Shown here one piece after another: positions 4,274 through 26,731 of a stretch of DNA of 26,732 bases (position 1 is its first letter; each line of letters starts with the position of its first letter). Under the pieces are notes generated by a model that was given only the letters and a program-made list of their open reading frames with translations, had not been told where the DNA came from and ran no database searches. The DNA comes from an uncultured Pirellulales bacterium (lineage in GTDB: Bacteria > Planctomycetota > Phycisphaerae > Sedimentisphaerales > Anaerobacaceae). The stretch lies in the NCBI GenBank assembly GCA_964622085.1, contig CAZUPG010000001.1:6478-33209 (forward strand). The letters run 5' to 3'. The position numbers and the translations under genes were made by a program.

Positions 4274-5221
4274 TCAAAGTATCTCTACGAGCCGGATATC
4301 AAAGGTCAGGTCTTTTCCTGCCAGAGGATGGTTGGCCTCCAATGTTACGCTCGATTCGGAGACATCGGCCACCACGACCTTAATTACTCTGCCGTCCGGC
4401 TGATGGTCTTGTAACTGCTGGCCCACCTCCGGCTTCAAGTGCTTCGGAAACTGGTCTCGACCTATTATCTGTGTCATTTCTTTACGGTGCGGGCCATACG
4501 CATTGTCTGCCGGTATTTTGGCGGTCTTAGATTCACCCACACTCATCCCGACCAAAGCATGTTCGAAGCCCGGGATTACCTGACCCTTACCTATCGTCAA
4601 CTGCAGAGGGGCACGGTTAACGGATGTATCGAATATCGTGCCATCTTCCAGTTTGCCGGTGTAGTGCACCCCAACAGTATCACCATATTTTGCCTGCAAC
4701 ATCGAGGACATTTCTAATAAATAAGCGTTATCAAATTGAAGGACCTCTCCCCATTTGCTCAATGTTTCTTTCGGCCAGGCAGAAATATGTTTTTCGTATT
4801 CGTTATTGTACAATGCCTCTTGCTGCAATACCCTTACCGGGGTTACTATCATAGCGAACCTGGATTTTTCTTTTATTAGATTTAATAAAAAGAGCCCGTC
4901 CTTTTCGCTGAGATGTTCCAATACATCACTGCAAATTATCATATCATAGTCACCCAGCGTGGGCAGGATATCTACTGCATTGCCAATATAAATGTTGTCA
5001 TAAATTTCCCGCTGTAATTGCCCTATATATTTTTCAAAAATTTCTATTCCGTCTATTCTGGTTTCAGGATTGAAATATCTGCCAAGCCGAACATCCGTAT
5101 ATTCTCTTGCAAGGAATCCGAACTTGCCAAACCCAATTCCTATATCAAGAACCGATACAGGATTTTTTTCAATTATCCTGTTACACACAGGGGCTAAAGC
5201 AGATGGTCTTGAGCACGGCAT
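4274..5221 (-). CDS. Class I SAM methyltransferase fused to an FKBP-type peptidyl-prolyl isomerase (SlpA/SlyD-like, insert-in-flap type)
   Basis: N-terminal part: 'VLDIGIGFGKFG' (SAM motif I), 'IDGIEIF', 'DVLEH'. C-terminal 142 aa from the ATG at 4702: 'GDTVGVHYTGKLEDGTIFDTS', 'IPGFEHALVGM', 'AYG', 'NHPLAGKDLTF'. No His-rich tail. RBS AAGGTG upstream of 5221. Confidence 0.9.
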   Translation of the reverse strand: MPCSRPSALAPVCNRIIEKNPVSVLDIGIGFGKFGFLAREYTDVRLGRYFNPETRIDGIEIFEKYIGQLQREIYDNIYIGNAVDILPTLGDYDMIICSDVLEHLSEKDGLFLLNLIKEKSRFAMIVTPVRVLQQEALYNNEYEKHISAWPKETLSKWGEVLQFDNAYLLEMSSMLQAKYGDTVGVHYTGKLEDGTIFDTSVNRAPLQLTIGKGQVIPGFEHALVGMSVGESKTAKIPADNAYGPHRKEMTQIIGRDQFPKHLKPEVGQQLQDHQPDGRVIKVVVADVSESSVTLEANHPLAGKDLTFDIRLVEIL

Positions 5222-5287: not shown

Positions 5288-8200
5288 CTAAACGGCTTGC
5301 AGTATTTTCTCATCATATTTTTGCCTGCCAAGCTCGCACTTTTGCAATAGCTGCCGGACCCGCTGGTTATTCGGGTCTATTTCGAGGCAGTCATTTAGCT
5401 CTGAACAGGCCTGCTCGAAAGCCATTTTGGCATAGACAGGCGACAAATTCGATTTTATATGCTCCTGGCCTATTGCAAGATAAGTCAGAGCAATCAAGCA
5501 TTTAGCATGCAATTGCCTCATATCAGGAGGTATCTTATCCCATGCAACGTCTGGAAACAGCTCATCGCAGCTGAAAGTATCCGTAAACCGCTTGAGAACC
5601 TCAAAATGGCTCCTGACTTTATCAGGATTTATAGTCCTCGACAGACTTTCCGGGTGCATTCGCCTCAGATGCAAGGCCTGCCGTAAATGGTGTTCCTTCA
5701 GGCCTGCCTTTACGAAACGTCTCATCATATCATAGTCCATACCCACTATTAGTTTTTCATCGTAAAGGCCTATCTTGTCGTAAACGCTCCTTCTTATGCC
5801 AAGTCTAAACGGTACTATCGGATGCCCGTGTCGGAACAGGTCTCTAATCAGATGCCTTCGGTCCTGATACTCGGGCTTATCCATTACCTTTATCGGCTCA
5901 CCGTCAGCATCAATCAGCAAGACATCGCAATATACAAGGTCGGCCTCGGGATGTTTCTCAAATTCCGCCAGGTGCTTGGCAATAAAGCCCTGTGTCATCA
6001 CATCATCTGCATCGAGAGGCATAATATATTGCCCTTTGGCCCGCCTTACGGCATGGTTTAGGGCATTGGACATGCCGCCGTTTTCCTGGTAGAAATATCC
6101 AATTCTTCCATCGTCATAACATGAAATCACCTTACTGGTATTGTCCGTAGAGCCATCGTCGATGATTATAAGTTCAAATTCTGGATAGTCTTGAATCAGG
6201 ACACTTTTTATTGCCTCGCCGATATACTCAGCGCCATTGTAAACAGGCATTATTATGCTAACCGGCGGGCCGCTCGTGCTGTCCTGATGCAAAGAGAGGA
6301 CAGAAGACAGAGGATGGTGATGGATGAGGGACGAAGGACGAGAGACGAGAGACGAAGTGGCTTCTGACATCTGATTTCCGACATCTGACCCTTCGACTGC
6401 GCTCAGGGCAGGCTTCTGACTTTGTTGGGAGACGGGGTTAACTGCTGAACCCGCAGCAGTAGCACGGCCATCCTGGCCGTGCTTGCACGGGCTGGAAGCC
6501 CGTGCTACGAGAGCATCAATTTCTCCGAGCATCTGAAGTACCTGGGCATCTTCGCCAACATTTGCCAAATAATTTAAGAGAAGTGTTTTGGCTTGCCTGT
6601 ATTTGCCGGATGCTTTCAATATCGCATAGCAATTAGTGATAGTATTCCTGTCCCACGGATTGAATTTGTATGCCTTAGTAAAGTATCTAAAAGCATTTTT
6701 TGTATCTCCGGCCTCCATCGCCATCAGCCCGTAATCATTCAGTGCCTTGACGTGGTTGGGAAATTTTTCCAGCAGCTCTTCGATTTGCGCATTAGCTTTT
6801 AGCACATTTGCCTGCAACAACAGTACATCCGGATGATTCGGGTATTTCTGCAATAACTGTTCGCATTCAAGGTCAGCCTGTCCGGTATCATTATTTTCGA
6901 GCAACTTCTCTATAGTATTAACTTCTCTGGCAATATTGATTCTGTCCCACAGTTTCGAAATATATTCCGGAGCTTTGTCTGTGCTGAAATTTTCTCGTAC
7001 AAAATCAACCGCTCTGTGGCGGATAGACGGGTCGGCGTCGACCATCTTCAAGCCGGCGATTATTGTCTCTGCCAGTTTTTCAGGCGTATTAGGTAAATAT
7101 AACAGGCCTGTCCGCCCATCAGCTAAGGTGGCAGCCGTACCTCCGGCATCATGCGCAGCGGGGATACACCCGCATGCCTGTGATTCCAGGATTACCATCG
7201 GGAAAGTTTCAAGCTTTGAGGGCAGGACAAGCAGGCTGTGCTTTGAATAGATTTCCGGCATATCTTTATTGTTAACATAGCCATGAAAATATGTACCTTC
7301 CGGTTTTGTGCTCTTGAGATTATCTCCATAGGCATCTCCACCGCGCCACATCGAACCATCCCCATAAATGTGCAACTCGGCATCACTTATCTGCCGGCGG
7401 ACTAATCGGAAAGCGTCCATAAGAATGTGAACACATTTATGAGGATGTAATGCACCCGCATACATTATAGAGTGATTGTCCCTTTCGACATCTTTCGGCG
7501 AATACACATCTGTATCAATAGGGTTGGGAATAATCAGGAACTTTTCATTTCCGATGCCGTGATTATGCAGTGAGGCCCTGTGTAACTCCGATAGACAAAC
7601 CACTATGTCGAAGTCGCTCATATGTGACAACGATACGAGGTCGTCAGCCTGCCAACAGTGCTGCCACAGTATCCAAATCTGTCCCTGAGGCTTAGTCAAA
7701 CCTTTGAAGTGGCGAATGTGCGTTGCGAAAAACACCACATCATAATTTGCAAGGAACTGCTCTCTTTCGCTAATCTGCGGTAACGGAACAAAGTGCAAAG
7801 ATTCATACTGCTCCGGATGAGTTACAAGATTGCCGGTTATGTGAGCTTCTATGCCGTGGCTGTCGCGAAGCATTCTTGCGACGTTCAGTACAGCCATTAC
7901 CGTCCCTGCAGGACTGGTTTCACTGATGTTGCCTATTCTGTCATAATAGAACAGTATCTTTTGTTGACCGACACGTGGCGGCAACATATCCGGTACCCGA
8001 TCAAAATCAGGTCTGATGCTTAAGAGCTTCTCCAAACTGCTACGTGCTCCAACAAGGTCACCCTCGCTTTTCTGTAACATCATCAGAGCAAAAAGTCCCT
8101 GCCAGTCATCTTTTTTCGCTTTCTCCACCGCTGCCTTGTAATCCTCAAATGCCTCACTGACCTGACCCCGACGCCTCCGTATTAGTCCACGCCAGAAGTA

Positions 8201-11200
8201 CGGCAGTCCACGTTCAGGGTATTTTTCAATTGCTTTAAGGATTTCTTCATAAATGCTATCCGGACAGTTCGCAATCACCTGCCAGGCCTGAACCAGGCTT
8301 GTAACTGTATATAAATCAGGATGACAGGTAGCTATAAAGGCCCAAGCCAACCTTCGGTTATGCTTGATCGTCTTATGATACATGCTCTGAGGATTTATTC
8401 GATAAAGGAAAAGTTTTTCCTCTATCCGTTTAACAACAGGATTGTGCTTTGAACAACCAATCCAGAAATTCCAGTCTTCCGGCTGAACGATAACGCTTAA
8501 CAGGTTATCATACCCACCAACTTTGCGCCAAAGCTCCTTCCTGTAAAGGGACGCGTAAGGCATGGTGTTCTCAAGCATAACTCTTGACCTTGAGTACTTA
8601 GCAGGTACCCATTCACCATTTGAAGTCCCGAATTCCTGCAGGCTAGCAAAGACGATATCCACCTTTTGTTCCTGCTGGATAATATCCACCGCCTTTTGCA
8701 TAAACGTCGGTTCAAACATATCGTCACTATCCAGCGGTAAAATCCACTCATTCACGGCAGCCAATATTGCCGTATTTCTCGTATCTGCCAATCCAGTATT
8801 TTGTGGTTTGTCGATAAGCCGAATCTTATGATTTGGATACTTTTCTATTAACTGCCTTGTAACCTCAACAGTATTGTCGGTGCTGCAGTCATTGACAATA
8901 ACACATTCCCAATTTTTATACGTTTGATTTATAATAGACTCAACCGCCTCAGGAAGATAACGTGCCTGATTGTAGCACGGGACAATTACTGATATTCCGA
9001 CTGCATTGTCACCAGCTTTTTTGAAATAGAAGTCTACTTCCTGATGAACCGCATTGCTCACAAAGCTGGTATACTTGCTTATGTCAATAATCATTCCCTG
9101 CTGATAAGTTTGCGCCAATCTTTCAGGGCTGTAGTCCTCATTTATGCCTGACCTATTTTGCTCATATACGTTCTGAACCTTATTAGCCGGGTTGCAGAAA
9201 GTTACACTCGTACGGCAGCAAAGCAGCATTGGCCGGCTGTTCTCGAACTGCCTGTTTGAAGCCATTTGTGATTCCAGCTCATTCGGATTTGAAAAATCTC
9301 GTTCGGACAGAAAATCTAACATTTCCTTCGAGCGATAAACCGAGCTTGAGACCTCCAGCGGATAGCCGAAATCCCGCTCGGCCGCAGTCCAGTCGTATTT
9401 CACTATAGAATCTGTGAGTTTTTCGAACGGAGGAAGTTTCTGCAGGGAATTTAACATATAACAATAAGTTGTATTTTCACCCAGCCGAAGCGAAAAACCA
9501 ATCGCATCGGCCTCTCTATCCAAAGCATCAGTTACATCTCCGATGTAAAAGTCGCGGGTATAGATGTCGTCATCCACCATAAACAGAATGTATTTAAACG
9601 CTTCTATGACCTGCAGTGTCTGCTGTCTAAAATCTCGCTCTTCAATAAAGGTAATATCCTCGAAGCATTTTTTTAAATCATCATATTGACCTTTATGTAA
9701 TGGGGTAGTGGCTTTGTAAAGTATTGTCAGATGGACATTGTTGCTGTCTTTACAATGCAATAGGAACGATTCTATCGTTGCTCTAAGCTGCATTGCCCGG
9801 TCCTTACTGAAGATTAGGGCGGCAGAGTCTTTTTGGGTCTGCTCTTTTTTTTGCTTTTGGCTGCTCTGGAACCTTTCGGTGATTAAATCGATGTCATGCT
9901 CGATTATCTTTTTGTTCTCAGCGGTCGCTCTTGTGTGAAAGGATGATATTCTCTTTATAAGAGCTGATGATATTCGCTGCTTGGTGGCTTCATCCAATCT
10001 GTGCTCGATGTATGGTACTGTTTTGAAATAAAAATATAGAATATCCTTGTGACCAAGTTGATTTGCTTCCAACTTTGCAGATAAATTCCCTGACCATTGT
10101 CTGCAGTATGCAAGCATTTGGTCTAAATAGTAAAAATTTTTGCTTTTTAAGATTCTACACCACATATCAATGTCTGCTGCACAGCCGACGGCTGTATCAA
10201 AATCCCCAGCTTTGTTAATATCATCTCTTCGAAAGAGTATTGCTGCTGGCCATCCTACCGGCCTCTTTCCCAAAAGATAATTTTTGATAAATTCTTCACC
10301 ATTCTCTTTTGTGCTTTCATTAAATAGCTTGTATAGATTGTTACTATTTTTTATGTTGCTATCCTCATCAACGATAAAGCAATTACAACAAACAACTCCG
10401 ACGTCAGGATGTTCATTTAGAATCTTTACCTGTTCAGCGACACAATTATTTTCGAGTATGTCATCATCTCCTATTATTTTGATATACTCTCCCGAGGATA
10501 ACGACACAGCCTTATTCCAATTCTTTATGAACCCTATGTTCTCTTCATTTCTGACAAACGTAATACGCTCTATGTCAGAGTAGGCCTTCGAGAGTTTTAT
10601 GGTTTCGTCTGTAGAACAATCATCTAAAACCAGAATTTCTATGTTGGAGTAAGTTTGATTGAGAGCGGAATCTATCGCTATTTTGAGATAATTTACTCTA
10701 TTGAAGGTCGGGATTAGTATAGATACCTTTGGTATTTGTTTTTTAGGACTAACATTTTTACAACTATGGGCAGCACAGATTATGAAGTCTTTTTTGTCAA
10801 TATGGTTTTCAATGTTGTGAGTTTGGTAGTTTTGGTATTTAAAAAACTCAGGCGCAAGACCATTTGCGGATAACCATCGCTTAATTTTTTCCTCATCAAT
10901 ATAAAACGTCGAATGAAAACCCATGTTAATTGCTTCCGGGCTTCTCTCTTGCATATAAGGTGTTGAAAAAATAAGTGTCCCACCAGGTTTAAGTGCACGG
11001 CTAAAAACTCTAAACAATTTAGGGATGTCATCTTCGGTTAGATGTTCAACTGTCTCAAAAGAAACGATATAATCAAATAGAGATTGATACTTTAAATCCA
11101 GTAGATTTGCATGAACAAATTCAATATTCTGGATGTTTTTGTAACGAACTCTTATTTCCTTTATGACTTTTTCGTCAATATCTACGCCAATTACCCGGTT

Positions 11201-12958
11201 AGACTTTTCTGCCAGCATAACGCTGCCGTAACCTGTCCCGCACGCAAAATCTCCGACTACTTTTCCAGGCGAAATGATAGATTTAGCGTACTCATATCTG
11301 CGGCAGTGACTCTTTTGATATATATCCAATTCATCGAATTTGGTATTTCCCTTGTAAAATATATCAACACGCTCGCCATTACCGTCTAAGTTGGTTTTGC
11401 CCGGCAGGGTGACAGAATCGCCTGCCAGCCCAGAGACGCCAATAGACTCAGGGTCATTTGCCTTCGCATAAATATCTCCCCATAGCAACTCGTTATCCAG
11501 GTGCTCTATGTGATGAAACAGCATCTCTGAAGAAACCCATTCTGAGAACACAAATTCCGGTCTTTCCCCCAAGCATAAATTAAAATGCTTGTATCCGAGA
11601 GCCTGTAAATGAAGTAAACACTTCCTGGCATTTTCCAAGAATTCGATTGCGAATTCAAATGCAATATAGGGGACCGGCTGAGAAAGACCTTTTAAGACCG
11701 CAAGCTCAAAACCTTCTACATCAATCTTGCAAAATTTCGGACGTCCATAAACTTCTATCATTTCATCCAATGTCGTGACTTCCACTGGAATGACTCTATC
11801 CCAAGAATAGTCAGTAAATCTGCCGGTTTTCCATTCATCAGAAAATGTCGAAATAGTATTTGCCTTGCTGCATATCGAAAGTTGCATTTGCCCGGCCTCG
11901 CCTGCAAGACCGTTGTCCACGATAGTTACGTTCTGATTATTCTGATACTTTTCGCGCAACACTCTTACACACTCTGGTTGTGGCTCAAAACAAACCACGT
12001 GAGCACCCTTCATAAGATATACATCAGTTTTTGAGCCAACATTTGCACCCACGTCAAATACAATATCCCCCTCACCAATCCAATCATTAACGACGAGACT
12101 TTCGCTTTCGGGTTGCATACATAGTTGCGTATCCAAGTCACCCTGCTCTCGCACCGTGTTAACTTTACCTGGCTTGACCGCCTCCCTCTTGGCTGACGTT
12201 TGAATATTGCCCGGCAGGGGGACAGAATCGCCTGCCAGTGCGGCCCGAAGCTGGTTTTTCCAAGCTTCCCAAGTTGGCCTCTCTTCCTGGGCAACGGTGC
12301 TTTCCAACAACAATTCCTCCGCCACTTTTAGTTGCTCTTGTAAGCAAAAGGGTTTAGATTTCACAGCAACAACCGTCACGTTCGATAAATAAGGTTCTTT
12401 AGACCATGAACTTGACAGCGTTTGGATCTCCCCAAACCCCAATGCTCTGAGCGTGTGCTCGAACCTCTCAGGGAACCAGTGATCAATATGATAGCCCCAA
12501 TTAGCTGCCTGGTCTCCAGCCAAGTGGCGAACAACTCCCATTTTAATCTTCCATGAGGTATCAGAAACCAGCATTCTTGCGCTAGCTATCAGGTCGGGTG
12601 TCTCGATATGAAGCCTACCCCCAATTTTCAACCACTTGTTCCATTTAATCAGCATAGCAAGTGCTGTAACCCGGCTAAAGTGCTCAAAAACGTGATGAAG
12701 CCGTATCTCGTCAACTGACCCAAGAGGGAAATCCAGGCTCTTTATATCAGCGTAAACATCCGCTTTTACCCGCATCAAATTATGTTCGGATTGGGGATAA
12801 TCAATATTTATATAACCGTCAAAATGCCGCTCTCCACAACCAAGATGAAGCCGAAGCGCTATGCCCTCTTGCCACAATCCGAAATCTTTAAGCTGCTGCA
12901 ATACATCAATATCGTTATCGATGATCTTGGCACAGTTGCTTTCTATCTGAGCCATCAA
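5288..12958 (-). CDS. 2556-aa multidomain glycosyltransferase/methyltransferase: MT, FkbM-MT, MT, GT2, GT-A-like, GT2, TPR, GT4, TPR, repeat-derived linker, GT2, helical/TPR-like tail
   Basis: Approximate modules: MT1 12860-12340 ('LHLGCG..GYINID'); FkbM 12090-11460 ('FDVGANVG', 'KIDVEGFE'); MT3 11380-10760 ('GDFACGTGYG', 'FETVEH'); GT2 10735-9900 ('SILIPTFNR', 'DDCSTD', 'GDDD'); GT-A-like 9830-9020 ('IFSKDRAMQL', 'VDDD'); GT2 9000-8350 ('SVIVPCYNQ', 'LDSDD'); TPR 8260-7990; GT4 7965-6940 ('ETFPMVILE', E-x7-E); TPR 6920-6520; GT2 6270-5620 ('SIIMPVYNG', 'LDADD'). Start is TTG at 12958 or ATG at 12955. Confidence 0.9.
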   Translation of the reverse strand: MMAQIESNCAKIIDNDIDVLQQLKDFGLWQEGIALRLHLGCGERHFDGYINIDYPQSEHNLMRVKADVYADIKSLDFPLGSVDEIRLHHVFEHFSRVTALAMLIKWNKWLKIGGRLHIETPDLIASARMLVSDTSWKIKMGVVRHLAGDQAANWGYHIDHWFPERFEHTLRALGFGEIQTLSSSWSKEPYLSNVTVVAVKSKPFCLQEQLKVAEELLLESTVAQEERPTWEAWKNQLRAALAGDSVPLPGNIQTSAKREAVKPGKVNTVREQGDLDTQLCMQPESESLVVNDWIGEGDIVFDVGANVGSKTDVYLMKGAHVVCFEPQPECVRVLREKYQNNQNVTIVDNGLAGEAGQMQLSICSKANTISTFSDEWKTGRFTDYSWDRVIPVEVTTLDEMIEVYGRPKFCKIDVEGFELAVLKGLSQPVPYIAFEFAIEFLENARKCLLHLQALGYKHFNLCLGERPEFVFSEWVSSEMLFHHIEHLDNELLWGDIYAKANDPESIGVSGLAGDSVTLPGKTNLDGNGERVDIFYKGNTKFDELDIYQKSHCRRYEYAKSIISPGKVVGDFACGTGYGSVMLAEKSNRVIGVDIDEKVIKEIRVRYKNIQNIEFVHANLLDLKYQSLFDYIVSFETVEHLTEDDIPKLFRVFSRALKPGGTLIFSTPYMQERSPEAINMGFHSTFYIDEEKIKRWLSANGLAPEFFKYQNYQTHNIENHIDKKDFIICAAHSCKNVSPKKQIPKVSILIPTFNRVNYLKIAIDSALNQTYSNIEILVLDDCSTDETIKLSKAYSDIERITFVRNEENIGFIKNWNKAVSLSSGEYIKIIGDDDILENNCVAEQVKILNEHPDVGVVCCNCFIVDEDSNIKNSNNLYKLFNESTKENGEEFIKNYLLGKRPVGWPAAILFRRDDINKAGDFDTAVGCAADIDMWCRILKSKNFYYLDQMLAYCRQWSGNLSAKLEANQLGHKDILYFYFKTVPYIEHRLDEATKQRISSALIKRISSFHTRATAENKKIIEHDIDLITERFQSSQKQKKEQTQKDSAALIFSKDRAMQLRATIESFLLHCKDSNNVHLTILYKATTPLHKGQYDDLKKCFEDITFIEERDFRQQTLQVIEAFKYILFMVDDDIYTRDFYIGDVTDALDREADAIGFSLRLGENTTYCYMLNSLQKLPPFEKLTDSIVKYDWTAAERDFGYPLEVSSSVYRSKEMLDFLSERDFSNPNELESQMASNRQFENSRPMLLCCRTSVTFCNPANKVQNVYEQNRSGINEDYSPERLAQTYQQGMIIDISKYTSFVSNAVHQEVDFYFKKAGDNAVGISVIVPCYNQARYLPEAVESIINQTYKNWECVIVNDCSTDNTVEVTRQLIEKYPNHKIRLIDKPQNTGLADTRNTAILAAVNEWILPLDSDDMFEPTFMQKAVDIIQQEQKVDIVFASLQEFGTSNGEWVPAKYSRSRVMLENTMPYASLYRKELWRKVGGYDNLLSVIVQPEDWNFWIGCSKHNPVVKRIEEKLFLYRINPQSMYHKTIKHNRRLAWAFIATCHPDLYTVTSLVQAWQVIANCPDSIYEEILKAIEKYPERGLPYFWRGLIRRRRGQVSEAFEDYKAAVEKAKKDDWQGLFALMMLQKSEGDLVGARSSLEKLLSIRPDFDRVPDMLPPRVGQQKILFYYDRIGNISETSPAGTVMAVLNVARMLRDSHGIEAHITGNLVTHPEQYESLHFVPLPQISEREQFLANYDVVFFATHIRHFKGLTKPQGQIWILWQHCWQADDLVSLSHMSDFDIVVCLSELHRASLHNHGIGNEKFLIIPNPIDTDVYSPKDVERDNHSIMYAGALHPHKCVHILMDAFRLVRRQISDAELHIYGDGSMWRGGDAYGDNLKSTKPEGTYFHGYVNNKDMPEIYSKHSLLVLPSKLETFPMVILESQACGCIPAAHDAGGTAATLADGRTGLLYLPNTPEKLAETIIAGLKMVDADPSIRHRAVDFVRENFSTDKAPEYISKLWDRINIAREVNTIEKLLENNDTGQADLECEQLLQKYPNHPDVLLLQANVLKANAQIEELLEKFPNHVKALNDYGLMAMEAGDTKNAFRYFTKAYKFNPWDRNTITNCYAILKASGKYRQAKTLLLNYLANVGEDAQVLQMLGEIDALVARASSPCKHGQDGRATAAGSAVNPVSQQSQKPALSAVEGSDVGNQMSEATSSLVSRPSSLIHHHPLSSVLSLHQDSTSGPPVSIIMPVYNGAEYIGEAIKSVLIQDYPEFELIIIDDGSTDNTSKVISCYDDGRIGYFYQENGGMSNALNHAVRRAKGQYIMPLDADDVMTQGFIAKHLAEFEKHPEADLVYCDVLLIDADGEPIKVMDKPEYQDRRHLIRDLFRHGHPIVPFRLGIRRSVYDKIGLYDEKLIVGMDYDMMRRFVKAGLKEHHLRQALHLRRMHPESLSRTINPDKVRSHFEVLKRFTDTFSCDELFPDVAWDKIPPDMRQLHAKCLIALTYLAIGQEHIKSNLSPVYAKMAFEQACSELNDCLEIDPNNQRVRQLLQKCELGRQKYDEKILQAV
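6294..6420. repeat. Two oppositely oriented 7-mer tandem arrays, in frame within the mega-ORF
   Basis: Purine-rich array GAGAGGA CAGAAGA CAGAGGA ... GGGACGA AGGACGA GAGACGA GAGACGA (6294-6355), then pyrimidine-rich TTCTGAC ATCTGAT TTCCGAC ATCTGAC ... TTCTGAC (6362-6420). A 10-bp direct repeat GGCTTCTGAC occurs at 6359-6368 and 6411-6420. Confidence 0.75.
6390..6414. repeat. 24/25-bp REP-like element (family B), encoding 'PALSAVEG' on the - strand
   Basis: CCTTCGACTGCGCTCAGGGCAGGCT, flanked by TCTGAC on both sides. It matches the nested insert at 21091-21114 at 18/24 positions. Confidence 0.7.
6459..6508. repeat. GTAG-type REP doublet (REPIN-like, family A), in frame within the mega-ORF
   Basis: GTAG-CACGGCCA-TCC-TGGCCGTG on the + strand and GTAG-CACGGGCT-TCC-AGCCCGTG on the - strand: two inverted GTAG-tagged hairpins. 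Translates as VARASSPCKHGQDGRAT. Confidence 0.85.
11397..11428. repeat. 32-bp direct repeat, copy downstream of the FkbM module
   Basis: TTGCCCGGCAGGGTGACAGAATCGCCTGCCAG; 31/32 identical to 12207-12238. Confidence 0.95.
12207..12238. repeat. 32-bp direct repeat, copy upstream of the FkbM module
   Basis: TTGCCCGGCAGGGGGACAGAATCGCCTGCCAG; exactly 810 bp from the other copy. Confidence 0.95.
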
Positions 12959-12991: not shown

Positions 12992-13324
12992 TCAAATACT
13001 ACTGCGGTAAGTCTCTATAGTCCTTCTGCCTTTGCGAACCCGGTTTAGCTTTTCGCTGGTTTCGGTTTTCGCAGCGGTGATGGCCAGACATAGACTATCG
13101 TATAATTTCGCTAGACGCTCACGTTGCCCCGCATTAAATGCGGGGTCGGCCAGTTCAAGAATCCCTGTCTGTGCGATTTTTTCCACAAGAAAACCGACCT
13201 GCTCGCCCAAAATCTCAACATCGTTAATGTTACCCTGCCGAGCCATCTCTATCTGCTTTTCTAACAGATAACGCAAGTCCCTTAATTCGGATAAAAATTG
13301 TGATGTCTGTTTATCTGCCCTCAT
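12992..13324 (-). CDS. Small helical protein, putative FliT/FlgN-like flagellar export chaperone
   Basis: 110 aa, predicted helical ('LRYLLEKQIEMARQG...LVEKI...LAKLYDSL'), ending 'RKGRRTIETY' like FlgN/FliT-type chaperones. ATGA overlap with the upstream TPR gene. The family call is by resemblance and context only. Confidence 0.5.
   Translation of the reverse strand: MRADKQTSQFLSELRDLRYLLEKQIEMARQGNINDVEILGEQVGFLVEKIAQTGILELADPAFNAGQRERLAKLYDSLCLAITAAKTETSEKLNRVRKGRRTIETYRSSI
13127..13145. repeat. Palindrome CCCCGCAT-TAA-ATGCGGGG (family D), in frame in the 110-aa gene
   Basis: 8-bp perfect stem of the same design as CCCCGCGT-AAA-ACGCGGGG at 22612-22630. Encodes DPAFNAG. Confidence 0.65.
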
Positions 13325-25891: not shown

Positions 25892-26731
25892 TTATACTCT
25901 CTGCATAACCGCAGCTTTTTGAATGCGTTTTTTCGCTTTCTTCCCGTCGCCGGTCTTTACTGAAGCTTCGTTGGTAGCGCGGATTAGCTCATTAACGTCT
26001 GAGTCGCTCAGTCCCGTCAATTCGACCGCTATTGACAAACCATTACGTATAGCTTTGGTGTGCCTGACCTCACCAATATCTTCTACTATTTTCGATGTTG
26101 GTGTTTTACCGGTCTTCAGCAAACTCGAGCCCCGGCTCTTTTCTTCATCCAAACGAAACATTACCAAAGCTCTCTCACCAACTTTTATCTTTATGGGGGC
26201 TTCTATACGCAAACCAGGCCCTGCCAGTTCAGTGACAACCGCAGGAACAAATTCGGGCGGCCCCCACGCCGGCTCACAACTTTTTGCAAATGGGAAGTGA
26301 GCGATAAAGGCCGGCTTTTTTACCGGAACACGCAGAAAACGCCGGCGGTTAATAAATCGAACATTATCGCTGTGATTCAAAACCAATGTGTCACCATCGT
26401 AACTGACCACGGAAGTGTCGAACTCCACAACCGATGCGCCAAAATAGTAACGCACACACCAGGCCTCGCCGAAAGTGATTTTAACCGGCCTATCCAATTT
26501 AACTGCCAACTCGGTATCACTGTTTCTTATAATAGTCGATTCAACATCACCTTCATCCCGTGCCTTTCGACGTGTCATACGGATTTTTTTACCTACGGGA
26601 ATTTGCCTGCTGCTTAACTTCTTCTGCCTGACAGCAGGGCCTATCGAGTAGACAGGCTGTTCCTTAAACCCGAGTTTTTCACACAGCAGAGACAGCTCTG
26701 TTTTCAACTGCTCGATTTCTTCCTGCGTCCA
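25892..26731 (-). CDS. PilZ-domain (YcgR/flagellar brake-like) protein, 5'-truncated by the window edge
   Basis: RxxxR motif 'NRRRFLRV', then a PilZ-like beta barrel 'VVTELAGPGLRIE...GEVRH...IAVELTGL'. A YcgR-N-like region precedes it. The frame is open to the window end (WTQEEIEQLKTE...). Confidence 0.75.
   Translation of the reverse strand, partial: WTQEEIEQLKTELSLLCEKLGFKEQPVYSIGPAVRQKKLSSRQIPVGKKIRMTRRKARDEGDVESTIIRNSDTELAVKLDRPVKITFGEAWCVRYYFGASVVEFDTSVVSYDGDTLVLNHSDNVRFINRRRFLRVPVKKPAFIAHFPFAKSCEPAWGPPEFVPAVVTELAGPGLRIEAPIKIKVGERALVMFRLDEEKSRGSSLLKTGKTPTSKIVEDIGEVRHTKAIRNGLSIAVELTGLSDSDVNELIRATNEASVKTGDGKKAKKRIQKAAVMQRV

Follow-up and report, generated by a model that had tools for sequence, protein, structure and literature searches.

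In a Pirellulales genome recovered by assembly of sediment metagenomes, the FkbM methyltransferase module of a giant multidomain gene was found to lie between two nearly identical 32-nt copies of one coding sequence. These copies probably represent a duplicated inter-domain linker that has been kept alike by short-tract intragenic gene conversion, and judging from sequence comparison the pair would be a by-product, and possibly also a substrate, of domain reshuffling, not a recognition site.

Genomic context of the giant gene

The giant gene (5288..12958, minus strand) is placed between fliD and flgL in the window (the whole stretch of 26,732 nt that was analyzed). Its flanking genes are fliR, flhB and fliD on one side and flgL, flgK, flgN, flgI, flgH, flgA and rod genes on the other, and this embedding of glycosyltransferase (GT) and methyltransferase (MT) genes among flagellar structural genes is the arrangement of a putative flagellin glycosylation island. 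The giant gene was absent from seven of the eight genomes of the same genus. Based on the open reading frame list, its translation and Pfam, it encodes a protein of 2556 amino acid residues (2555 in the database copy, P0002), and the start codon is likely the ATG at 12955. The order of its domains is an N-terminal class I MT-like module, an FkbM MT, a Methyltransf_25 MT (MT25), a GT2, an unassigned domain, a GT2, a TPR region, a GT1, a second TPR region, a repeat-rich linker and a last GT2.

The N-terminal methyltransferase-like module (12239..12955, minus strand; aa 2-240) showed a weak Pfam match (PF08241, 18 bits, under its cut-off) and is a widely shuffled homology unit, with dozens of homologous proteins aligning to it only as far as aa 241-260; it shared 87% nucleotide identity with G011 over 12219-12858. 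The FkbM module (11429..12206, minus strand; aa 251-510) consists of a variable lead, a PF05050 core (aa 302-428, 11675-12055) that Pfam places between both repeat copies, and a tail ending in ...LLWGDIYAKANDPESIGVSG. It is a predicted FkbM methyltransferase, given PF05050 scores of 57.8 bits (whole protein) and 62.3 bits (excised module), both above the gathering cut-off of 22.7. The class I MT25 module (10680..11396, minus strand; aa 521-760; PF13649) opens a low-GC MT25-GT2 cassette, in which the GC content is 34-37% over ~9950-11300, compared with 42-51% elsewhere, the drop starting at repeat copy 2. Over 10140-11392, the MT25-GT2 region was 82% identical at the nucleotide level to a gene of G013 that stands alone and encodes 570 aa, and the native MT25 lead of relatives (...SISANxNFxLxxxxFxLxKxNLDG) is missing here.

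Position, identity and copy number of the repeat

Direct reading and a repeat finder (family D2) both returned the two 32-nt copies, TTGCCCGGCAGGGTGACAGAATCGCCTGCCAG at 11397-11428 and TTGCCCGGCAGGGGGACAGAATCGCCTGCCAG at 12207-12238, which are identical at 31 of 32 nt and lie in frame with a start-to-start distance of 810 nt, so that the direct repeat around FkbM reported by the first-pass annotation was reproduced. Its figure of 2286 residues for the protein left after loss of FkbM between the copies is also arithmetically right (2556-270). The spacing of exactly 270 codons that it stressed is correct but has no special meaning, because in-frame copies within one open reading frame are necessarily a multiple of 3 apart. 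Copy 1 (12207..12238, minus strand) encodes LAGDSVPLPG (aa 241-250) and copy 2 (11397..11428, minus strand) encodes LAGDSVTLPG (aa 511-520), with the FkbM tail on one side of it and the truncated MT25 head on the other; every synonymous position agrees between them.

At up to three mismatches the window contained two copies, with an expectation of 0 from 100 dinucleotide shuffles. The search for additional copies that the first-pass annotation had proposed gave the same two in the whole 1.94-Mb genome assembly and none beyond them. The exact 32-mer, with one N allowed, had no match in the public metagenome and genome contig collections, and a regular expression of the motif run over 120 database homologues matched the window's own protein only.

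Origin of the repeat peptide

Homology identifies the repeat peptide as the C-terminal tail that is native to the N-terminal methyltransferase module; copy 2 is a duplicate of this tail, joined to the truncated low-GC MT25-GT2 cassette. Copy 1 is orthologous to the family linker LAGDFVASPSNTQTPDVSS..., and homology to the tails of relatives extends into the sequence on either side of it (QLRAA... and ...NIQTS); at this place the relatives carry QLRAVLAGDFVASPSNTQTPD, LAGDYVPQLS, LKGDTIPLPSNT and similar sequences. The tails matched the 32-mer at 17-22 of 32 nt in the seven closest relatives and at 7-12 in the three most distant. The family tail is conserved, with both synonymous and non-synonymous divergence, and its LxGD core is widely conserved across the family; what follows it in most relatives is a different methyltransferase module.

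A mosaic orthologue that likewise adjoins fliD was found in G079, an uncultured Pirellulales MAG of another genus, and there too the tail flanks FkbM on both sides (MAGDFVPAPGDIQTS before FkbM and LAGDFVASPSNTQTPDVSS after it). The two G079 copies match at 19 of 32 nt, a significant similarity (0 of 200 shuffles). Both the match to the family tail and this diverged pair at equivalent places indicate that the two copies of the window derive from one ancestral sequence. Similarity between the linkers flanking FkbM was significant only in the window gene and G079, and not in P0003 (27 of 200 shuffles). Protein-seeded locus searches returned G079, one cyanobacterial FkbM and one fragment, and nothing else. 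Since the tail stands on both sides of FkbM in this genome and in G079, the duplication would be older than the split of the two genera. Each copy of the window matched either copy of G079 at 21-22 of 32 nt, so the copies within the genome are more alike than the orthologous ones, and vertical descent alone is insufficient to account for their identity.

Exchange of modules within the gene

The synonymous divergence (dS) from G079 was 0.52 for the N-terminal MT, 0.14 for FkbM and 0.36 for GT2, the adjacent modules of one gene thereby differing nearly four-fold, and FkbM was 93.6% identical to G079 at the nucleotide level over aa 290-517. These module-specific values indicate that each module was exchanged on its own, the breakpoints lying in the linkers. 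DNA homology ends inside copy 1 for G011, 4 nt from copy 2 for G013 and inside copy 2 for G079. The recently exchanged FkbM block begins ~115 nt downstream of copy 1 in gene orientation; thus, the left crossover of this exchange did not fall at the repeat.

Both the GC drop and the break of homology coincide exactly with the right edge of copy 2, and the native MT25 lead is absent; these features would also fit an arrival of copy 2 along with MT25-GT2 from a related gene that carried the tail directly before MT25. With the crossover at the tail start, the identity of 31/32 would then reflect recent allelism. Natural fusions of the N-terminal module to MT25 that lack FkbM do occur (P0030 directly, P0006 via a linker of ~50 aa). 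However, a donor of this kind was seen neither among 276 family genomes nor in the public collections, and the FkbM-tail|LAGD junction is common to the window gene and G079, from which it follows that a tail copy was already there. The matching substitutions in both copies among strains, described below, further point to exchange after the joint. We regard this origin of copy 2 as unlikely, and it can be reconciled with later conversion.

Shared changes in the two copies among strains

In related strains (~96-98% identical), both copies were observed to carry the same changes, one of them synonymous. At repeat positions 8, 12, 14 and 19, the two copies read GGGG/GGTG in the window, GGTG/GGTA in X3, GAGT/CAGG in X7 and GAGG/GAGG in X9. 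The synonymous change at position 12 (CCC to CCT) occurs twice in the X7/X9 lineage, once per copy, and position 14 is alike in both copies of X3 and of X7/X9. Derived substitutions, one of them silent, are therefore common to both copies of a lineage, at two informative sites. The identity between copies was 31/32 in the window and in X3, 30/32 in X7 and 30/30 in X9, compared with 19/32 within G079. The X9 contigs end at the repeat edges, which is expected if the X9 copies are identical. In a secondary piece of X7, 0 other letters were listed where 2 were expected, and we have no explanation for this.

We infer from these patterns that gene conversion is the homogenising mechanism, on the basis of two informative positions within the 32 nt and of four strains represented only by assembled contigs; parallel mutation is an unlikely source of the common changes. 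Purifying selection on LAGDSVxLPG, as a functional docking or hinge motif needed on both sides of FkbM, appears improbable. The LxGD core is indeed as widely conserved as such a role would predict, but the synonymous positions are all identical between the copies, the silent change of X7/X9 is found in both, and the peptide is not constant, given the replacements among strains (S to F or Y, P to T, P to A) and the differences in G079.

In the history that we consider to fit these observations, the lineage that includes this genome and G079 would have come to hold the FkbM module inside the linker, flanked left and right by the first part of the tail. Later, in this species, the right-hand copy would have been cut after ten codons and the low-GC MT25-GT2 cassette joined there, and since then short-tract intragenic gene conversion would have kept both copies near identical. 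The order of these events is only inferred, because no donor of the MT25 junction was found. Linkers would be places that tolerate recombination joints, which is probably the route of domain reshuffling in this protein family.

Readings as a recombination site, a switch or a mobile element

The inverted arms GGCAGG/CCTGCC are present in each copy, as the first-pass annotation had described, but their likeness to a recombinase site was not upheld. The fold was not significant (z -0.8 to -1.8; 8 to 43 of 200 shuffles folded equally well), and it is not conserved among strains, given that the stem is broken without compensation by G>A at position 12 (both copies, X7/X9) and by G>C at position 8 (X7). 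A recombinase-site hairpin was therefore rejected. As had also been noted, no recombinase was seen in the window: a Pfam search for a cognate enzyme near the repeat, covering window ORFs of at least 150 aa other than opposite-strand ORFs that overlap the genes, found none, and the matched ORFs were all flagellar, GT, MT, TPR or FKBP. A 271-aa ORF at 25892-26707 had no Pfam match.

Inverted repeats were not found at the insert ends (11429 and 12206). A transposon or MITE with target-site duplication was rejected in view of this, of the in-frame FkbM insert and of the 32-bp repeat. Copy 2 also has a perfect inverted match of 10 nt at 12137-12146, but by our own estimate ~0.4 such matches would be expected in 881 nt, which puts it at chance level.

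Neither a deletion joint, a circle joint nor an empty allele was observed in the contigs of ten metagenome runs, contigs being prone to drop rare variants. Every contig that spans a junction carried the full form (copy 1 in X1, X2, X3, X4, X7, X8 and X12; copy 2 in X1, X3, X7 and X10). X8 and X12 had been candidates for an empty allele, with the N-terminal module and MT25 and no FkbM, and were dropped when their contigs proved to cross copy 1 into the FkbM flank; the X11 and X42 contigs stop before reaching copy 2. Of the integration of a circular module proposed by the first-pass annotation, a module with its own history bracketed by the repeat was borne out by the low dS of FkbM relative to the N-terminal module and by the G079 tail on both sides, but not the 810-bp circle. 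That annotation held that its reading would fall if the peptide were a conserved linker with synonymous divergence and if empty or alternative alleles were nowhere to be seen. The former was observed, and the latter among near relatives only, other modules coming after the same tail in more distant homologues.

The built-in switch that it also proposed, in which recombinase targets or engineered direct repeats excise and re-insert the 810-bp FkbM and toggle one methylation, is highly improbable. In its favour, the direct repeats enclose an entire domain in frame, natural architectures such as that of P0030 are similar to what a deletion would leave, and 31/32 bp is close to the minimum length for RecA-dependent recombination. 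On the other hand, the genome holds only two copies and the window no recombinase, the hairpin is neither significant nor conserved, terminal inverted repeats are lacking and the junction-spanning contigs are all of the full form. Moreover, a deletion would be one-way, and hence not a toggle. Rare in-frame deletion mediated by RecA or slippage is possible. That the homogenised pair serves as a selected cassette boundary, for loss of FkbM by RecA or slippage and homologous re-acquisition from relatives, is a long shot; if true, populations would vary one flagellar-glycan methylation by domain, an analogue of phase variation without a dedicated recombinase.

Discussion

A linker duplicated around FkbM and homogenised by conversion would have a close parallel in PKS and NRPS megaenzymes, whose repeated segments evolve in concert through gene conversion and which recombine at inter-domain linkers. 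As in those enzymes, modules are swapped whole with breakpoints in linkers, repeats inside one gene are homogenised, and paralogous copies in one genome resemble each other more than orthologues from different genomes do. In contrast to them, the homogenised tract here is a linker of 32 nt and not a catalytic domain, and the protein, which is encoded in a flagellar locus, fuses methyltransferase, glycosyltransferase and TPR parts. As in site-specific recombination sites or target-site duplications, a direct repeat brackets an insert and each copy has short inverted arms. However, 32 bp is far longer than the usual duplication of a mobile element, and the insert has neither terminal inverted repeats nor a recombinase or transposase. 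The arms lack both significance and conservation, and the repeat is an ancestral coding linker. No new recombination system is revealed here.

TPR-bearing flagellin glycosyltransferases exist, for example FlmG. Flagellin glycosylation islands hold variable sets of glycosyltransferase and methyltransferase genes among flagellar genes (PMC5109656, PMC7874193). The present locus resembles them in having GT, MT and TPR regions between fliD and flgL and a content that is highly variable between relatives. It differs in that the predicted activities are fused in one 2556-aa polypeptide, with variation at the level of domains.

The locus would thus provide a small, clear example of how a giant sugar-modifying enzyme is rebuilt, with domains exchanged as units and joints placed in linkers, after which a duplicated linker can be homogenised by conversion. 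It may aid the reading of the many shuffled MT/GT/TPR megaproteins in metagenomes, and it marks linker positions that would tolerate the insertion or removal of a domain.

Repeat and Gene Context

A 32-bp direct repeat was confirmed in the giant gene (5288..12958, minus strand), with both copies in frame in this one ORF of 2556 aa. Copy 2, at 11397-11428, reads TTGCCCGGCAGGGTGACAGAATCGCCTGCCAG on the plus strand and encodes LAGDSVTLPG (aa 511-520); copy 1, at 12207-12238, is the same except for G at the 14th base and encodes LAGDSVPLPG (aa 241-250). The 270-codon distance pointed out in the first-pass annotation is exact but uninformative, since any two copies sharing a reading frame within a single ORF lie a whole number of codons apart. 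At ≤3 mismatches, two matches were found in the window (0 expected in shuffles), the whole assembly (1.94 Mb, 349 contigs) contained the same two copies and no others, and the exact 32-mer was not found in public genome or metagenome contig collections.

Pfam searches placed an FkbM methyltransferase at aa 302-428, a Methyltransf_25-type methyltransferase (MT25) at aa 570-660, and three GT2 domains, one GT1 domain and TPR blocks in the giant protein, and a class I methyltransferase-like unit scored below the cut-off in the first 240 aa. The gene is accompanied by one MT-FKBP, one TPR, one GT2 and one TPR-GT1 gene, with fliR, flhB and fliD on one side and flgL, flgK, flgN, flgI, flgH, flgA and rod genes on the other. 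The locus is a predicted glycosylation island within the flagellar gene cluster. A ~300-aa segment at 9050-10000 (aa ~987-1303), starting ALIFSKDRAMQL, had no Pfam match; many homologues carry it too, placed behind the tail of the N-terminal module (GLIFSKDRAMQL), and it probably represents a catalytic module of the family that is yet to be characterised. A ~75-aa low-complexity stretch at 6290-6510 (aa ~2150-2225; SPCKHGQDGRATAAGSAVNPVSQQSQKPALSAVEGSDVGNQMSEATSS, HHHPLSS) lies after the final TPR block and before the final GT2; it has a local GC peak of 55% and looks like repetitive DNA translated in frame. A second, partial FkbM gene of the genome (G000:C107:6-461, short contig) is 48% identical in amino acids and reaches 79% nt identity to 11676-11776 over a patch of 101 nt; contigs of runs X1, X3 and X5 from this paralogue match 11701-11737.

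Copy 1 as a Native Module Tail

Across 120 homologues from the database, the three N-terminal units are not tied to one another and stand in many different orders. Homologue alignments to the first unit stop at aa 241-260, where sequences such as QLRAVLAGDFVASPSNTQTPDVSS, QLRAILAGDGLANPGNLPAQD and QLRSVLDGQILPAPANIELPDIS are found, and the family tail continues to LPLDEIHDFNQ, with which the methyltransferase normally found next begins. Of the 32 nt of copy 1, 17-22 are matched by the tails of the seven closest relatives and 7-12 by those of the three most distant. Their homology at the same place indicates that copy 1 is the N-terminal module's own, native tail, differing among orthologues by ordinary synonymous and non-synonymous changes. 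A conserved linker peptide with synonymous divergence thus occupies the position previously proposed as a recombinase site or switch. Nor is the arm-spacer-arm layout supported as a recombinase site: folds of the 6-bp arms were equalled by 8 to 43 of 200 shuffles, and strain variants at positions 12 and 8 disrupt stem pairing with no compensatory change. No terminal inverted repeats were found at the ends of the FkbM insert, and the ORFs of at least 150 aa with a Pfam match in the window are glycosylation and flagellar genes, with neither a recombinase, as first noted, nor a transposase among them.

Copy 2 and Separate Module Histories

In relatives, the MT25 module has a conserved lead (SISANxNFxLxxxxFxLxKxNLDGxGERVDIF). 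The giant gene is without it, and copy 2, which directly adjoins KTNLDGNGERVDIF, is evidently foreign to the module after it. From copy 2 on, GC drops from 42-51% to 34-37% over the MT25-GT2 block (9950-11396), which looks like a cassette gained as one unit. DNA homologous to a free-standing MT25-GT2 gene of 570 aa in genome G013 (L010 6427..8139; 82% nt) stops 4 nt from copy 2, and homology to DNA of genome G011 (87%) stops within copy 1; G013 belongs to another genus than the window's.

The orthologue in G079, an uncultured Pirellulales MAG of another genus, is a 2085-aa gene adjoining fliD that matches the giant gene block by block, with a different methyltransferase in place of MT25. Nucleotide identity was 84.7% over aa 1-258, 93.6% over aa 290-517 and 89.7% over aa 739-1071, and synonymous divergence came to 0.52 in the N-terminal module, 0.14 in FkbM and 0.36 in the first of the GT2 domains. 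Module-specific divergence, homology ends and the GC step at the linkers together indicate that the linkers are recombination breakpoints. In gene orientation, the FkbM block of recent exchange starts ~115 nt downstream of copy 1, so the repeat was not the left crossover point of the FkbM exchange. In G079 (L043, C1 704-9479) the orthologue directly adjoins fliD, whereas in the window the MT-FKBP fusion gene (4274-5221) intervenes.

The tail flanks FkbM on both sides in G079 too (MAGDFVPAPGDIQTS before, LAGDFVASPSNTQTPDVSSVSAA after), which implies that the linker duplication predates the split of the two genera. Similarity between the linkers before and after FkbM was significant in the giant gene and the G079 orthologue only (0/200 shuffles each). 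The G079 copies match each other at 19/32 nt and each window copy matches either of them at 21-22/32, whereas the window copies match each other at 31/32, a pattern that could not arise under vertical descent.

Strain Variation and Probable Conversion

Strains were compared using assembled Logan contigs from other runs; the runs with this sequence are salt-marsh and marine-sediment metagenomes. Identity over the locus was 100% in X2, X4, X8 and X12, ~98% in X3 (46x depth) and ~96% in X7, X9 and X10. Both copies with the intervening FkbM lay on single contigs of X1, X3 and X7, copy 1 with both flanks on short contigs of X2, X4, X8 and X12, and copy 2 was spanned in X10; no deletion joint was found in any of these contigs. 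In-frame loss of FkbM by recombination between the 31/32-bp repeats, as earlier envisaged, could occur and would leave an architecture like that of the homologues P0030 and P0006, but it would be one-way and no instance was seen in the contigs examined.

At repeat positions 8/12/14/19 (plus strand), copies 1 and 2 read GGGG and GGTG in the window, GGTG and GGTA in X3, GAGT and CAGG in X7, and both GAGG in X9. Both copies in X7 and X9 carry a silent change (CCC to CCT) at position 12; at position 14 the two copies are alike in X3, and likewise in X7 and X9. X9 contigs stop at the repeat edges, as expected with two copies identical at the assembler's word length. These parallel states, at two informative sites in assembled contigs, bear the signature of concerted evolution by gene conversion. 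For a secondary piece of X7 the strain table lists 0 other letters against 2 expected, a discrepancy without explanation. In the X3 strain (~97-98%), 148 other letters take the place of 157 nt in the intergenic region 13050-13208, which precedes the giant gene.

Origin of the Repeat

In the most likely account, a linker was duplicated as architectures joining the N-terminal module, FkbM and a further methyltransferase were assembled, and the repeat is the result. Illegitimate or homeologous recombination between genes with the same tail would have produced this architecture together with the duplicated linker; later, in the window's lineage, the linker would have been truncated where the MT25-GT2 cassette joined, and its copies would then have been homogenised by short-tract conversion. 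Alternatively, copy 2 may have come with the cassette from a closely related gene carrying the tail ahead of MT25, an arrangement present in P0030 and P0006; both accounts could hold together.

This locus is consistent with the variability for which flagellin glycosylation islands are well known (PMC5109656, PMC7874193). Modular megaenzymes are alike in recombination at linkers and in concerted evolution of repeated segments, and the linker repeat of the giant gene is a fresh instance of this already known behaviour.
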